Shown one piece after another: positions 17,313 to 63,832 of a DNA stretch of 64,000 nt. Below the pieces are notes generated by a model. It saw only the letters and a program-made list of their open reading frames with translations, was not told the origin of the DNA and ran no database searches. Source of the DNA: a virus (lineage: Duplodnaviria; Heunggongvirae; Uroviricota; Caudoviricetes); IMG/VR virus record IMGVR_UViG_3300020451_002055; one strand, 5' to 3'. Positions within the stretch are counted from its first letter, which is position 1; every line of letters begins with the position of its first letter. Made by a program: the position numbers and the translations under genes.

Positions 17313-17385
17313 GCCGAAGGTATTTCAATATGGCAGAAGTCTCCCGCTTTAGGGAGGAATGCGGGTTCGAGTCCCGTCCTCGGCT
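17313..17385 (+). pseudogene. aberrant tRNA, anticodon undetermined
   Basis: Good D and T arms; extra base in acceptor 5' strand; CTCCC/GGGAG stem closes only a 6-nt loop GCTTTA. Confidence 0.6.
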
Positions 17386-23734: not shown

Positions 23735-23815
23735 GGTGGCTATGGCAGACAGGTAATGCACCTGGTTGTGAACCAGGGCCGTAAGGCAATGCGAGTTCGA
23801 ATCTCGTTAGTCACC
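23735..23815 (+). tRNA. trnH: tRNA-His(GTG) with long variable arm
   Basis: G-1/C73; CCTGG-TT GTG AA-CCAGG; V region GCC-GTAA-GGC-AAT. Confidence 0.85.
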
Positions 23816-23820
23816 CTTTT

Positions 23821-24318: not shown

Positions 24319-24393
24319 GGTGTGCGTAGCTCAACTGGTTAGAGCATCGGGTTGTGATCCCGAAGGTTGCGAGTTCGAACCTCGTCGTACACC
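24319..24393 (+). tRNA. trnH: tRNA-His(GTG), canonical
   Basis: G-1/C73; TCGGG-TT GTG AT-CCCGA. Confidence 0.95.
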
Positions 24394-24399
24394 CTTTAT

Positions 24400-30850: not shown

Positions 30851-31282
30851 ATGGATCGGGTTGAGCTTTACACCGATGGGTCATGCGAGCCCTCCTCCGG
30901 CATCGGAGGATGGGCTTTTATCCTTCGGTTTCCTGAGATCGGGCACGAAGTCAAAGCTGCCGGTCGAGCAGAAGAGACAACGAACAATCGAATGGAGATG
31001 ACTGCGGTCATCGAAGGCCTCAAGCGTCTCAACAAACGCTGCGAGGTCGTTGTCTATGCAGACAGCAAGTATGTCCTTGACGGACTTAGAAGTTGGCTTC
31101 CTGCATGGAAGAAGAACGGATGGAAGAAGTCTGACAAGAAGCCCGTGAAGAACAAAGATCTATGGGTTGTCTTGGACGAACTGAAGAAGGCCCATAAGCT
31201 GCGTTACAACTGGGTCAAGGGTCATAACGACCACGAAGAGAATGAGCAAGTCGATCAGATGGCTTGCAACATACGGCGGTAG
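30851..31282 (+). CDS. rnhA: ribonuclease HI
   Basis: YTDGSC, TTNNRMEMTA, YADSKYV, WVKGH..NEQVDQMA. Confidence 0.95.
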   Translation: MDRVELYTDGSCEPSSGIGGWAFILRFPEIGHEVKAAGRAEETTNNRMEMTAVIEGLKRLNKRCEVVVYADSKYVLDGLRSWLPAWKKNGWKKSDKKPVKNKDLWVVLDELKKAHKLRYNWVKGHNDHEENEQVDQMACNIRR

Positions 31283-31359
31283 CTCAATTGGTAGAGCGTC
31301 TGACGACTGGAAAGTCTTTCCACATCAGAAGGTTGGCAGTTCGAATCCGTCCCGCCGTG
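31273..31359 (+). tRNA. tRNA with 14-nt hairpin insertion in the anticodon loop (identity unclear, Trp-like acceptor)
   Basis: ACGGCGG/CCGCCGT+G, canonical D arm, TCTGA/TCAGA stem enclosing 21 nt. Confidence 0.7.
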
Positions 31360-31361
31360 TT

Positions 31362-34613: not shown

Positions 34614-35073
34614 ATTCTGGTATCACATATCAGAAAAGAACCTCGGCTACAAAGCATACTTCGAGCCTCGCGAGATCGAATGTCTCGGCGAACCATCTCG
34701 ACCAAGGATATGCGTATCCCCAACGGTTGCTCATTGTCTTTCCGCTATCTGCGCCCACGATAAAGTCTATGTATACCGGACATACCGCAAGATGTCGGCT
34801 AGATATCCCTATGGCATCTGCGACTCATACATAACGAAAGAGAGATGGCTGTTTGGAGAGACATGCTTCCTACGACAGCTAACCATCAAATATGACGATC
34901 TAGGATTGCATGAGTTCAGTTGCGCGAGAGGAGATCCATTCGAGCTTGGAAGGCAAGAAGACGAGTATACAGACATCTGCATATCGCTGATGCAGAGCGG
35001 ATTGATAGAGGAGTATCCTCATATCGACTTCGTAGCTCCGAAAATGCTGCGAGAACTTAGGGCGATGGTGTAA
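34597..35073 (+). CDS. hypothetical protein, possible ADP-ribosyltransferase-like fold
   Basis: WYHIS...RICVSPT...CLSAI...VYVY pattern. Confidence 0.55.
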   Translation: MWTKPRFWYHISEKNLGYKAYFEPREIECLGEPSRPRICVSPTVAHCLSAICAHDKVYVYRTYRKMSARYPYGICDSYITKERWLFGETCFLRQLTIKYDDLGLHEFSCARGDPFELGRQEDEYTDICISLMQSGLIEEYPHIDFVAPKMLRELRAMV

Positions 35074-35130
35074 TTGGCAACACAGCAGATTTTGATTCTG
35101 CCATTCTGGGTTCGAGTCCCAGTCGCCTTG
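35059..35130 (+). tRNA. trnQ: tRNA-Gln(TTG), second copy
   Basis: GCAGA-TT TTG AT-TCTGC; overlaps upstream stop. Confidence 0.9.
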
Positions 35131-35171
35131 TTTTAGAGGGACGGTCGTGTTTTTCTTTGTAACACGATCAT

Positions 35172-36002
35172 ATGTTCCCAAACGAAACTTCCAAAATGGC
35201 CTTGTGCATTTCGGGCACGTTTCGTACCGCCTGGGAATGCCATAAGTCTCATTTCAAAAACATCGTCAATGCCTTTCCTGGTCAAGTGGATATCTACTTG
35301 CAGTCTTATATATCAGATGAGGCTTATCAAGTTTGGTGGGCAAAAGAGCGCAAAGACTCGACATGGAATATGGCCTCCGATATCATCGATCTTTACAAAC
35401 CTAAAGCTGTTTGCTTTGAGGAAATGGAACCGCTACAGAGGCGGCTCAATCAAGAGTATCATGTTGACCTAGGTATCCCGTATTGGATGCACAATAACTA
35501 CGCTCAACTACAAATGCAGTATCTAGGAATCAAGACATGCTATGAACTCGCAAGTAAGCAAGATAACTACGATGCCTTCTTCCGTTGCAGATATGACTCT
35601 TGGTACTTTGAGCCGGTTGACTTTAGCGAGAACTGGCAGTTCAAAGATGAGCATATCATGATTTCTCGCGGAGAAGTTGGCTCTCGCTCTGGCAAAGGCG
35701 GATTTTTCAGTTCCTACGATAAATACAGAACTAAAATGAATCCCTTTTACAAGATCAATGATCAGTCTTGGTGGGCAGGAGCAAAGCCTTATGCATACCT
35801 TGCTAGTCTGGTTGATTATGTAAAAGCATATTGCGATCCCGAAACAGGTAAAACGGAACTTTCTCCAGAAGGGCTCTACTGGCGTCATATGATCTCGGGA
35901 GATAGCGAGTATACGCCTGTGATCGAAGAGTCCATTTGGCAACGTATCATTCGAGATGAAGATATACCTCACTTAACCTTCTTCGAAAATGATGCAGAAT
36001 AA
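35172..36002 (+). CDS. putative glycosyltransferase-like protein, paralog 2
   Basis: MALCISGTFRT; YDAFFRCRYD; NDQSW; SPEG. Confidence 0.65.
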   Translation: MFPNETSKMALCISGTFRTAWECHKSHFKNIVNAFPGQVDIYLQSYISDEAYQVWWAKERKDSTWNMASDIIDLYKPKAVCFEEMEPLQRRLNQEYHVDLGIPYWMHNNYAQLQMQYLGIKTCYELASKQDNYDAFFRCRYDSWYFEPVDFSENWQFKDEHIMISRGEVGSRSGKGGFFSSYDKYRTKMNPFYKINDQSWWAGAKPYAYLASLVDYVKAYCDPETGKTELSPEGLYWRHMISGDSEYTPVIEESIWQRIIRDEDIPHLTFFENDAE

Positions 36003-36060
36003 AGGTTCTGCGTCTCCTTGGCAGTAAAACTGATGGTGACATCTATCCAAGGAGTTTTCT

Positions 36061-36444
36061 ATGAAATACGCAGCTATTTTGGTCGTTTTGGCAGCATTGA
36101 TCGTCGGCGGCTGTTCTGATTCATCTAATAGCGACTCTTCTCAGCCAATCGTCAACTCTGTTGAGGTTGATAACCCATATGTGGACATCAACAAGTCAGG
36201 ACATCAGACTTTCATTATGAAGTTTGTTGACCCTCAGTTTAGGGGTATGCACCCAAACATAACCACTAAGTCATTCCGCTTCTTTGAAAAGGCGGATGGA
36301 GTTGAGGTTCTTTACTTTTGGGAAGACCATGAGTATTATGTAACGAAAGCAGGAGAGGAAACGGAGACCCGCCGCAACAAGGCTGGTCGCTGGACCACGT
36401 TTGTCGATAACAAGACCTTGCGGGAAATCGTTCCGCAGAACTAA
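36061..36444 (+). CDS. lipoprotein
   Basis: Lipobox-like IVGGC after hydrophobic signal. Confidence 0.75.
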   Translation: MKYAAILVVLAALIVGGCSDSSNSDSSQPIVNSVEVDNPYVDINKSGHQTFIMKFVDPQFRGMHPNITTKSFRFFEKADGVEVLYFWEDHEYYVTKAGEETETRRNKAGRWTTFVDNKTLREIVPQN

Positions 36445-36454
36445 GGAGTAAGAA

Positions 36455-37103
36455 ATGAAGATCGATCAGCAAGCAAAGGGCGTAAGACTTCTCATGGGCG
36501 AGGAGGCCAGAATCCGGAGGCGGGTTCATCAACGTTTGCGTTGAAGAATCAGAGAGCAGCGGATTCGAAGAAATCCTGCTGCCCCTTGTCGAGCCGTCCA
36601 GGATTTACGAGGACAAGGCCGGAAAAGAGATCCTCGGTCAGATGTATACTTTCGAGGACAGAGGCGGCAGAGAGCTTTGCTTGAGACCGGAAGGAACGGC
36701 AACCGTTCAGCTTGTCGCTCAGAAGCTATGCGGCAAGAAGGATGTCAAGCTCTGGTACGAAACTAGATGCTGGCGATACGAAAGACCGCAAGCCGGTCGC
36801 TATCGAGAGTTCACTCAGTTCGGAGTCGAATGGCTCAACCCAAGAAACGAGGAGCAGGCACGCTCAGAACTTGAGTCTCTTGCTCGCAGGATTGCAGATC
36901 GCTTGGGAATCGATTACGAATGGAGTTCCGCTGTCAGTCGAGGACTTTCGTATTACACGGAAGACGGCTTCGAAATGGGCGTTCCCTCTTTAGGGGCTCA
37001 GAAACAGGTGCTAGGCGGCGGGAAGTATGCTGAAGGCATCGGGTTTGCTGTTGGAGTAGACCGGCTGGCCTTGGCATGTGAGCAGTTGGACTCATCTATC
37101 TGA
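36455..37103 (+). CDS. hisS: histidyl-tRNA synthetase, catalytic domain only, split by +1 frameshift near 36524-36529 (about 215 aa)
   Basis: AAGGAG RBS at ATG 36455 (AKGVRLL); +1 frame continues GFEEILLP, LRPEGTA, RYERPQAGRYREFTQFGVE, RGLSYYT, GGGKY, GFAVGVDRL; no anticodon-binding domain. Confidence 0.85.
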
Positions 37104-37121
37104 GATATCCGATAAGCTGAT

Positions 37122-37322
37122 ATGACCAACGATTTAGCTAAGAAGCTGATTTCGGACGAAGAACTACTACCGCACTTGCCGCATCCTATTTCTTTGGCTG
37201 GCAAGAACCTAACTAGGGAGAATCTAGATGCTCTTGCTAATCTCATCCGTATTGACTTGGCTAAAAAGAAGTTGGCTGAAGCTTTGGGGAATCAACCAAA
37301 AGAAGGAGAGCCAGATGAATGA
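37122..37322 (+). CDS. hypothetical protein
   Basis: ORF. Confidence 0.55.
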   Translation: MTNDLAKKLISDEELLPHLPHPISLAGKNLTRENLDALANLIRIDLAKKKLAEALGNQPKEGEPDE

Positions 37323-37584
37323 AGAAGGCCATGGCGGTTCAGGTTTTTTCGGCGCATTAGGAAAAGACTCTTGCGGCCACGGTTGCGGCTGCTCTTCGGC
37401 TCAGCCCGGCAGTTTCGAGCTTTACCGAGATGCAAGCGACGAATACCGCTGGCGTTTGAAGGCCCGCAACGGCAGGGTCATTGCAACATCTGGCGAGGGC
37501 TATGTCAACAAGGCGGACGCCGAGCATGGCATGAACCTCGTCAAGAATGCATCGAGCGTTACTGAAGTCAAAGATTTGACCTGA
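37315..37584 (+). CDS. YegP/DUF1508 family protein
   Basis: FELYRDASDEYRWRLKARNGRVIATSGEGY. Confidence 0.85.
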   Translation: MNEEGHGGSGFFGALGKDSCGHGCGCSSAQPGSFELYRDASDEYRWRLKARNGRVIATSGEGYVNKADAEHGMNLVKNASSVTEVKDLT

Positions 37585-37593
37585 AGCTAGAGC

Positions 37594-37782
37594 ATGAAAC
37601 AAGACGCAGAAACGAATCTGAAGCTGCTGACTACCGAGCATAGGCTGCTAACTATGCGAAGAAGCACGCTAAAGAAGCAGTTACAAGCAATGCTTGATGA
37701 AATGGGCGAGATCAAAAGAAGGCGAAATCAGATCGATGATGAAATATGGGAGATCAAGCATGGGAAAGCTTCTCCCAAATAA
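37594..37782 (+). CDS. small coiled-coil protein
   Basis: Heptad pattern. Confidence 0.55.
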   Translation: MKQDAETNLKLLTTEHRLLTMRRSTLKKQLQAMLDEMGEIKRRRNQIDDEIWEIKHGKASPK

Positions 37783-37785
37783 CAT

Positions 37786-37868
37786 GGAAGGCATCCGGCT
37801 GGATGAGGAGACGACCTTGAAAGTCGTTGGGTGTAAAAGCCTTGTGGGTTCGAGTCCCACGCCTTCCG
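37786..37868 (+). tRNA. trnS: tRNA-Ser(TGA)
   Basis: ACGAC-CT TGA AA-GTCGT; body near-identical to 18841-18923. Confidence 0.9.
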
Positions 37869-37874
37869 CTTTTT

Positions 37875-38498
37875 ATGGAAGAGCCAGAAGCTCTACATAT
37901 ATTGCATGCTAATGAGGCATTTGCAAAACTGGATGCGGCCATTGCTATCAATGCGGATGCCTTTGAAAATGGTCACACTAGAGCGAACGCTCTATTAAAA
38001 CGCATTCCAGTAGACAAGCCATTCATAGGCGTTGAGCTTGGAACCTACAGAGCAGAACTGGCTGAACTTCTGCTCAAGCATCGTCCTCTTCTAGAACTGT
38101 ATATGATAGATACTTGGCGTATCGATGTATCTCTTGGCGGAAATGACCCTACGCCTCTTTTGTCAGAAGAACATTACGCTGAGATATTCATGGATGCGGC
38201 AAGAAGAATCGCTCCCTACCTTGATAGAGCGCATATCATCAAGACAACAACGAATCAAGCGGTCAACCTCTTCGGCGAAGGGTTCTTTGACTTCGCTTTC
38301 ATAGATGCAGACCACGCTTACCACGCTGTCTTTGATGATATTAGACTTTGGCTTCCCAAGATACAGTCAAGCGGATTCATTTCTGGCCACGACTATTGGT
38401 CATGGTCCGGAACCCGTTCAGCAGTCAAGTTCTTCTTTGAGGGGCATATTGAGACAGACGCAGGAGATACCTGGTTTGTAGATTTGAGCAAGCGGTGA
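37875..38498 (+). CDS. class I SAM-dependent methyltransferase (Methyltransf_24-like)
   Basis: GVELGTYRAE, YMIDTW, FDFAFIDADH, GFISGHDY. Confidence 0.85.
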   Translation: MEEPEALHILHANEAFAKLDAAIAINADAFENGHTRANALLKRIPVDKPFIGVELGTYRAELAELLLKHRPLLELYMIDTWRIDVSLGGNDPTPLLSEEHYAEIFMDAARRIAPYLDRAHIIKTTTNQAVNLFGEGFFDFAFIDADHAYHAVFDDIRLWLPKIQSSGFISGHDYWSWSGTRSAVKFFFEGHIETDAGDTWFVDLSKR

Positions 38499-38567
38499 TG
38501 GATTAGTCTAGATTCGGCCAAGTAGATAGTTCCTATTCTGGACTTTGACGATAATACCTTGAGCTTT

Positions 38568-38656
38568 GGAGAGTAATCCCAGACGGCGACGGGCACCGCT
38601 TGGAAAGCGGTTGGATCAGGTAACCCCTGGTTGCGGTTCGACCCCGCTGCTCTCCG
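38568..38656 (+). tRNA. trnS: tRNA-Ser(GGA), second copy
   Basis: ACCGC-TT GGA AA-GCGGT; V arm; G73. Confidence 0.9.
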
Positions 38657-38662
38657 TTCCTT

Positions 38663-39400
38663 ATGAACGATCCCAAGATAGCAATTTGCCTTTCTGGTCT
38701 TCTTAGATCGTTCAGAACCACATATCCAAGTTTCAAAAAGAATCTCATAGGCGATCTGCCTTGCGATATCTATATGCATCTCTGGTTAGATGGAGATAGC
38801 AAAGAAGATATCGATGAAGCTATCAACCTGTATTCGCCTTACAAAGTCAAGATAGAGGCAAACAGGACGCATGACTTTGAAGAAGAGTATCAAAGCCTTG
38901 TTGACAAGTATGACCTGGATACTGATTCTACGATAACATGGCCTCCTAGCTTGCTGATTGTTCATTATGGGACTTCAGCTTGTTTTTCTCAGGTCAGTTT
39001 TAGAAAGTATGATCTCATTGTACGAGCGAGATATGATACCGAGTTTGTATCAAGAGTGCCCCTAGAGGGGTATTCAAGGATATCTCACGAGTTTGCTATT
39101 TTCCCTCCTGCTGAGAACTGCGATAAGCCTTTTGACAAGGAGATGAGAGAACTAGCGAAGGTCAGTCGTTTTTACTTGCTCAATGATCAGTTTGCAGTTG
39201 GTACTCCTCTGATGATGCAAAGGTATTTCAGCCTCTATGAGAGCATAGATGACTATCTATCCAAAATGCACCTAGACGTAGGTATCTTCTATCATCCAGA
39301 AGGTCTTCTCAAGTTTCACATGAATGAGGCTCAAGGGTCTTTTGGGGAGATCATTATAGACGAGCGAATCAAAATGAGACTTCTGCGTGAACATCTATAG
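38663..39400 (+). CDS. putative glycosyltransferase-like protein, paralog 3
   Basis: IAICLSGLLRS; YDLIVRARYD; NDQFAVG; HPEGLL. Confidence 0.65.
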   Translation: MNDPKIAICLSGLLRSFRTTYPSFKKNLIGDLPCDIYMHLWLDGDSKEDIDEAINLYSPYKVKIEANRTHDFEEEYQSLVDKYDLDTDSTITWPPSLLIVHYGTSACFSQVSFRKYDLIVRARYDTEFVSRVPLEGYSRISHEFAIFPPAENCDKPFDKEMRELAKVSRFYLLNDQFAVGTPLMMQRYFSLYESIDDYLSKMHLDVGIFYHPEGLLKFHMNEAQGSFGEIIIDERIKMRLLREHL

Positions 39401-63758: not shown

Positions 63759-63832
63759 GTCCCGGTAGCTCAATTGGTAGAGCCGAGGATTCTAAATCCT
63801 TGAGAGTACGGGTTCGAGTCCCGTCCGGGGCA
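63759..63832 (+). tRNA. amber suppressor tRNA(CTA), second
   Basis: GAGGA-TT CTA AA-TCCTT; acceptor GTCCCGG/CCGGGGC, A73. Confidence 0.9.

Follow-up and report, generated by a model that had tools for sequence, protein, structure and literature searches.

A candidate histidine-sensing +1 programmed frameshift in a predicted mini histidyl-tRNA synthetase gene of a huge marine phage

The window, the whole 64,000 nt stretch of DNA that was analysed, is part of a huge marine phage. At positions 36455 to 37103 it carries a gene resembling histidyl-tRNA synthetase (HisRS) that changes reading frame after 24 codons. Is this break an error or a sign of decay, or is it a programmed +1 frameshift, and, if programmed, does the shift respond to the supply of His-tRNA(His)? 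A sequence-only reading had proposed such a response, placing the HisRS N-terminus in a frame that stops at TGA 36542, the remainder in a +1 frame with no start of its own, and the junction at GGAGG-CGG-GTT-CAT-C, with a shifted product of about 215 aa. The sequence agrees with this anatomy, the coordinates of the junction are exact, and skipping one base yields a product of 215 aa. The features of the gene are as follows.

36443..36448, + strand: ribosome-binding site AAGGAG, 6 nt ahead of the start codon (read from the sequence)
36455..36526, + strand: frame-0 segment, codons 1-24, MKIDQQAKGVRLL...RIRRRV, the HisRS N-terminus through the P-site codon
36516..36520, + strand: internal SD-like GGAGG, followed by the 3 nt spacer CGG (36521-23) and then the P-site codon
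36524..36530, + strand: shift heptamer GTT-CAT-C (P-site Val codon GTT, 36524-26; A-site His codon CAT, 36527-29; C, 36530)
36542..36544, + strand: frame-0 stop TGA, where non-shifting ribosomes would finish a 29-aa peptide
36528..37103, + strand: +1-frame segment, codons 25-215 and stop, with the motif 1 strand, motif 2, HisA-like RGLSYY and motif 3 (class II HisRS core)

Frame 0 runs from ATG 36455 for 29 codons (...ARIRRRVHQRLR) to the TGA at 36542-36544. The +1 frame is open from 36486, just past a TAA at 36483-85, to the TGA at 37101-37103; its earliest ATG, GTG or TTG is the ATG at 36642, which encodes Met63 of the joined protein, and the frame thus lacks a usable start. After a slip on the heptamer, the +1-frame codon at 36528 is ATC (Ile); the joined protein was translated with CGGG read as R. 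A single copy of the 14 nt pattern GGAGG-N3-STT-CAY is present in the window where 0.17 would be expected, and at least one copy turned up in 17 of 100 shuffles. The count alone is thus not significant in a single window, and what gives the motif weight is that it sits at the frame break and is conserved in homologs.

The two segments together make sense as one protein. The frame-0 segment aligns without gaps to residues 8-30 of Thermus thermophilus HisRS, and the joined 215-aa product aligns gap-free over the junction to residues 8-138 of the same enzyme, and also to residues 229-319 (PDB HisRS, E 8e-32). The +1 segment matches PF13393 (2e-21) and TIGR00442 hisS (5e-46; 157.4 bits, under the equivalog cut-off of 286.75); its match to HisZ (TIGR00443) is weaker, at 78 bits against a cut-off of 271.65, and does not place the protein in that family. 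Class II motifs 1, 2 and 3 and the HisRS-specific RGLxYY are present (WRYERPQAGRYREFTQFG, RGLSYY, GGGKY...GFAVGVDRL). In its colinear N-terminal segment, motifs 1-3 and RGLxYY histidine-binding motif, the phage protein resembles the class IIa HisS enzymes of Escherichia coli (1KMM/2EL9) and T. thermophilus (1ADJ/4RDX), but it is about half their size and has no histidine. The architecture is not that of full-length HisS, as only residues 8-138 and 229-319 of the 421-423-residue enzyme are matched; missing are the insertion domain of about 90 aa, the 11-residue motif 3 loop and the whole anticodon-binding domain. An AlphaFold model of the joined product has a pLDDT of 78.8, and its best fold matches are E. 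coli HisRS structures (TM 0.82-0.85). In the model the junction (residue 24) lies within one continuous helix (residues 16-34), with block-mean pLDDT values of 71, 92 and 96 over residues 11-40, and the downstream ORF by itself would lose half of the motif 1 helix. The gene product is therefore predicted, from alignment and model, to be a 215-aa, histidine-free mini-HisRS reduced to the class II catalytic core. At this small size it is a putative enzyme, with aminoacylation as its presumed activity.

The simplest explanation of the break would be a sequencing or assembly error that put an extra G into the GGG run (36522-24), a caveat raised in the sequence-only reading and prompted by the short homopolymer at the junction. 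Contigs of three runs (X1, X2 and X3) cover 36455-36619 with no inserted or missing letters, and all keep the GGG run. X1 may be the source of the window's sequence, X2 is another sample of the study that produced X1, and X3 is a sludge metagenome from a separate study with 2 substitutions; depths were about 5 to 17. These are consensus contigs and not raw reads, and the contig of a further run, X5, begins at 36521, with the upstream frame outside its span. The caveat fails against these independent assemblies from two studies, and the same break is present in relatives that have no G run at all (e.g., L003 and L021); the probability of an error is negligible. Transcriptional slippage was ruled out, as there is no homopolymer common to the relatives at the site.

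Relatives of the gene were sought by tblastn of GenBank phages and by scans of IMG/VR, metagenomes and species genomes, the scans giving 220 loci (the frame classes of L018, L121, L134, L063, L105, L133 and L136 were assigned by hand). A megablast search of positions 35000-39000 against GenBank phages gave no match. Both types of gene are found among GenBank phages by tblastn: uninterrupted genes of 210-211 aa in two huge phages (LR745206 and LR756502), and a split gene in phage Phosso of Sinorhizobium (PV764938), which is in culture, where the junction reads GAGGT-TGT-CTT-CAT-C. In all, the +1 break was found in 40 loci from GenBank, IMG/VR, metagenomes and one MAG, representing 36 distinct proteins with identities down to about 45%. 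At the break, the frame-0 P-site codon is CTT in 26 and GTT in 10 of the 36, and 28 have CAT and 8 have CAC in the A site. In the closest relatives, L062-L065 (69-76% identity to the window), the site is without exception GGAGG-NNN-[C/G]TT-CAT-C. The two frames of L016 share no more than 5 nt, and this short overlap leaves GTT-CAC as the place of the shift. Thus, the frame break and the SD-NNN-NNN-CAY arrangement, whose retention had been suggested as a check on the proposal, are kept in many homologs, including all four of the closest, though not in every one.

Selection acts on the two segments in different frames. Among relatives, pN/pS of the upstream segment is 0.48 in frame 0, against 0.89 and 1.42 in the other frames, and that of the downstream segment is 0.19 in the +1 frame, against 1.57 and 2.31, values for which related sequences were taken as independent and pS among the frameshifted genes is near saturation (0.67-0.79). 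The lowest ratio thus falls in frame 0 upstream and in the +1 frame downstream, which indicates that both segments are translated and selected. This bears on the other caveat of the sequence-only reading, that of a decaying pseudogene with a one-base insertion. One extra base would account for a single sequence taken in isolation, but not for purifying selection on each segment in its own frame, nor for an identical break with the same codons in 36 diverged proteins. Other disrupted copies are also rare, with only one (L061) among 58 IMG/VR loci, and decay is very improbable. The L061 copy (1380-1830) has an internal deletion between motif 1 and motif 2 and is probably a true pseudogene. Since the break, the slip codons and the SD element are kept in relatives, and no indel appears across assemblies, the frameshift is taken to be programmed, and both error and decay are set aside. 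There is good support for a conserved programmed +1 frameshift, which is very likely.

The SD element was scored as the pairing of the 11 nt ending 2 nt before the P-site codon with a generic 16S rRNA tail. The window's GGAGG forms an anti-SD duplex of -9.5 kcal/mol, which places it within the top 1% for the gene. Pairing of -6 kcal/mol or stronger was present in 14 of the 17 frameshifted loci scored first, compared with 10% of positions within genes. Within the window's clade, the median is -9.5 kcal/mol for frameshifted genes and -1.8 kcal/mol for the same column of 61 loci classed as uninterrupted, a set that includes two loci (L121 and L134) later found to be frameshifted. The difference has a Mann-Whitney p of 6e-12, which overstates the significance because the sequences are related and were treated as independent. 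An Arg-Arg dipeptide at this place is written CGG-AGG in the frameshifted genes and mostly with AGA, CGC or other non-SD Arg codons in the uninterrupted ones. A clear SD is lacking in three of the 36 distinct sequences (L021, L035/L037 and L105). The same SD contrast has been reported between prfB genes with and without a frameshift (PMC12421855).

The break is not fixed at one place in the gene. It lies 6 residues past the GxEA motif in the window's clade, 10 residues past it in L105 and 14 residues past it in the Phosso clade, and in L059 it is at codon 71, within the conserved VCL-IPE motif. There are at least four codon positions, each a [C/G]TT-CAY at a Leu/Val-Ile/Thr dipeptide, and on a tree of 51 proteins the frameshifted label requires 3-5 changes. 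The chance of meeting the hexamer at a random break is about 2%, a rough estimate from about 0.001 per codon pair and about 20 codon pairs per overlap. Uninterrupted mini-HisRS genes with 54-63% identity are also present on bacterial genome contigs (L142-L174), on chromosomes or megaplasmids of Undibacterium, Massilia, Hahella, Pleionea, Cellvibrionaceae and Pseudomonas, and in this set only L173, a Nitrospiraceae MAG contig, is frameshifted. Since many homologs, including all of the bacterial chromosomal ones, do without it, the frameshift is not essential to the family.

Could the two frames be read as separate genes? Initiation or re-initiation at ATC 36528 would then use GGAGG as its ribosome-binding site, giving a 29-aa peptide and a separate 191-aa protein. 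The 7 nt between SD and ATC are the optimum for initiation, and in 12 of the 36 relatives the frame-0 stop directly follows the His codon. On the other hand, in 8 of the 36 the corresponding +1 codon is not a start codon but ACT or ACG, the junction falls in the middle of a helix in the model, and splitting L059 at codon 71 would cut the core in two. The invariant frame-0 [C/G]TT and CAY would be left unexplained, making a split gene a highly unlikely arrangement.

The identity of the A-site codon points to histidine. No His residue occurs in 35 of the 36 joined products, so the CAY of the slip site is the only His codon met on the productive path. The residue after the P-site column is Leu in 52 of 59 uninterrupted homologs, and Ile or Thr in the frameshifted genes, the residues that a CAY codon in frame 0 demands. 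The phage also encodes histidine tRNAs of its own.

24320-24394, + strand: tRNA-His(GUG) with an encoded G-1 opposite C73 (ARAGORN, Rfam), the likely substrate of the enzyme
23736-23816: second tRNA-His(GUG) (ARAGORN, Rfam)

In phage Phosso, a tRNA-His(GUG) gene (L003 1109-1183) lies about 220 nt upstream of the frameshifted mini-HisRS, and the tRNA-His genes of the window are 12 kb away from theirs. Together, the invariant His codon and the histidine-free product fit sensing of His-tRNA(His), by which the gene may be regulated.

A mechanism can be proposed on this basis. A ribosome would initiate at 36455, read 24 codons and pause with tRNA-Val on GUU (36524-26) in the P site and the His codon CAU (36527-29) in the A site, while GGAGG, 3 nt upstream, would pair with the tail of the 16S rRNA in the manner of the prfB site. 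With a prompt arrival of His-tRNA(His), translation would go on in frame 0 and end at UGA four codons later. If it arrived slowly, either the P-site tRNA would slip by one base to UUC, or the +1 codon AUC would be decoded directly, and the full enzyme would be made. A shortage of charged tRNA-His would in this way raise the level of HisRS, a negative feedback in which the phage provides its own tRNA-His. We infer both the exact slip mechanism and its dependence on the level of His-tRNA(His). One weakness pointed out in the sequence-only reading stands: re-pairing from GUU to UUC at the window's GUU-C slip site leaves a first-position mismatch, and 26 of the 36 relatives use the better-pairing CUU-C.

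The main rival is a shift that is programmed but constitutive, with a fixed low yield or as the repair of an old indel, and with no response to His-tRNA(His). The His codon would then be a by-product of the formation of the site or of the pairing needs of the slip site. The conservation evidence fits this equally well, and as every site lies at a Leu/Val-Ile/Thr dipeptide, one C inserted between [C/G]TT and AYN is enough to make CAY; the invariance of the His codon could partly reflect such an origin. Against it are the presence of CAY in 36 of 36 proteins at no fewer than four positions, the replacement of the usual Leu by Ile or Thr, which allows CAY, the histidine-free products, and an architecture that matches the one known autoregulatory +1 site. 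A constitutive shift is rather unlikely, although clearly less so than the other rivals. The likeliest reading, and a reasonably good bet, is that the shift gauges how much His-tRNA(His) is available and thereby autoregulates the enzyme; as a whole, the locus is probably best explained by a programmed +1 shift at the His codon with feedback on the mini-HisRS.

A different route into the +1 frame would be a special phage tRNA with an enlarged anticodon loop that reads GUUC or CUUC as a four-base codon. The window is rich in tRNA genes (36, together with a tmRNA at 49896-50246), and some are odd. However, no GAAC or GAAG anticodon and no tRNA-Val or tRNA-Leu is found among the tRNAs of the window, the 8 nt anticodon loop TTTTTGGG of a tRNA reported elsewhere in this genome is unsuited to the slip site, and such a tRNA would require neither the SD nor the His codon. 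This route is accordingly given very little credence. A tRNA-like gene at 31272-31360 (Rfam tRNA, 54 bits) has an anticodon stem enclosing a 21 nt loop, perhaps with an intron or insertion, and a second odd tRNA call lies at 17313-17385; as four-base readers of the slip site, neither fits. Two further tRNAs, at 51482-51556 and 63759-63832, carry the anticodon CUA (amber suppressors, called 'Pyl' by ARAGORN).

SD-stimulated +1 shifting at a slow A site, as in prfB, and frameshifting at hungry codons are both established. A release-factor gene in the window (45513-46269; PCRF and RF-1 domains, GGQ present, N-terminal domain missing) has a 22-codon leader that ends in the canonical prfB signal AGGAG-CGT-CTT-TGA-C at 45568-45582, with its body in the +1 frame. 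This is the site with which the mini-HisRS junction had originally been compared, and it was found as described. Its presence in a phage gene means that the host ribosomes can be expected to respond to such signals. The mini-HisRS site resembles that of bacterial release factor 2 (prfB; AGGGGG-N3-CUU-UGA-C) in having a short frame-0 leader with a +1 shift into the main ORF, and an SD-like block placed exactly 3 nt ahead of the P-site codon, which is of the NUU type in both (CUU in most relatives). Decoding of the A-site codon depends in each case on the product of the gene itself, and in-frame homologs of both have lost the SD and slip elements (PMC12421855). The two differ at the A site, which is a sense His codon in the mini-HisRS (CAT in the window; CAT or CAC in all 36) and UGA followed by C in prfB. 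The molecule sensed would be an aminoacyl-tRNA and not a release factor, and the gene is that of an aminoacyl-tRNA synthetase. In addition, the window has GUU in place of CUU, and the mini-HisRS site arose at several positions in the gene.

Hungry-codon frameshifting is a second point of comparison. The bacterial cases described by Gallant are reportedly artificial reporters or errors. At the yeast Ty1 site CUU-AGG-C, too, peptidyl-tRNA on CUU slips by +1 while the A site, occupied by a sense codon, awaits a scarce aminoacyl-tRNA (PMC5009743), but this site is eukaryotic, has no SD stimulator, depends on a constitutively rare tRNA-Arg and has no synthetase feedback. A third comparison is with known control by charging. 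With T-box riboswitches, the thrS operator, pheST and leader attenuation of the his operon, expression rises when the cognate charged tRNA is scarce, which is the same logic as that proposed for the mini-HisRS. Those systems act via RNA structure on transcription termination or translation initiation, whereas the mini-HisRS would act in elongation, by a change of frame. No his-leader-like run of His codons was found in the window.

The literature searched, including a 2016 recoding review, gave no paper on a frameshift in any aminoacyl-tRNA synthetase gene, and no paper on phage Phosso. On balance, the family is somewhat better viewed than not as holding a natural, elongation-level aminoacyl-tRNA sensor, an SD-stimulated +1 shift at the cognate sense codon that evolved repeatedly at different positions in one huge-phage gene family. 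If so, it would be a second natural autoregulatory +1 frameshift of the prfB type, with a sense codon as the sensor, it would represent a new mode of aminoacyl-tRNA synthetase regulation, and hungry-codon frameshifting would acquire a clear role in physiology. Huge phages may in this way adapt their own translation components (tRNA-His and mini-HisRS) to demand. As Phosso is cultured and carries the same device, the idea is directly testable, and the cassette, being short and portable, could be put to use as a charged tRNA-His reporter.

The mini-HisRS gene is flanked downstream by a gene for a DUF1508 protein (37228-37584) and upstream by one (36061-36444) whose product looks like a small lipoprotein and has no Pfam match. 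A promoter and terminator scan near the gene gave nothing beyond chance. The sludge-metagenome relative in run X3 matches the window up to the mini-HisRS start codon and is fully divergent upstream, with the boundary at 36454/36455, and because the similarity ends at the start codon, this suggests that the gene moves as a cassette.
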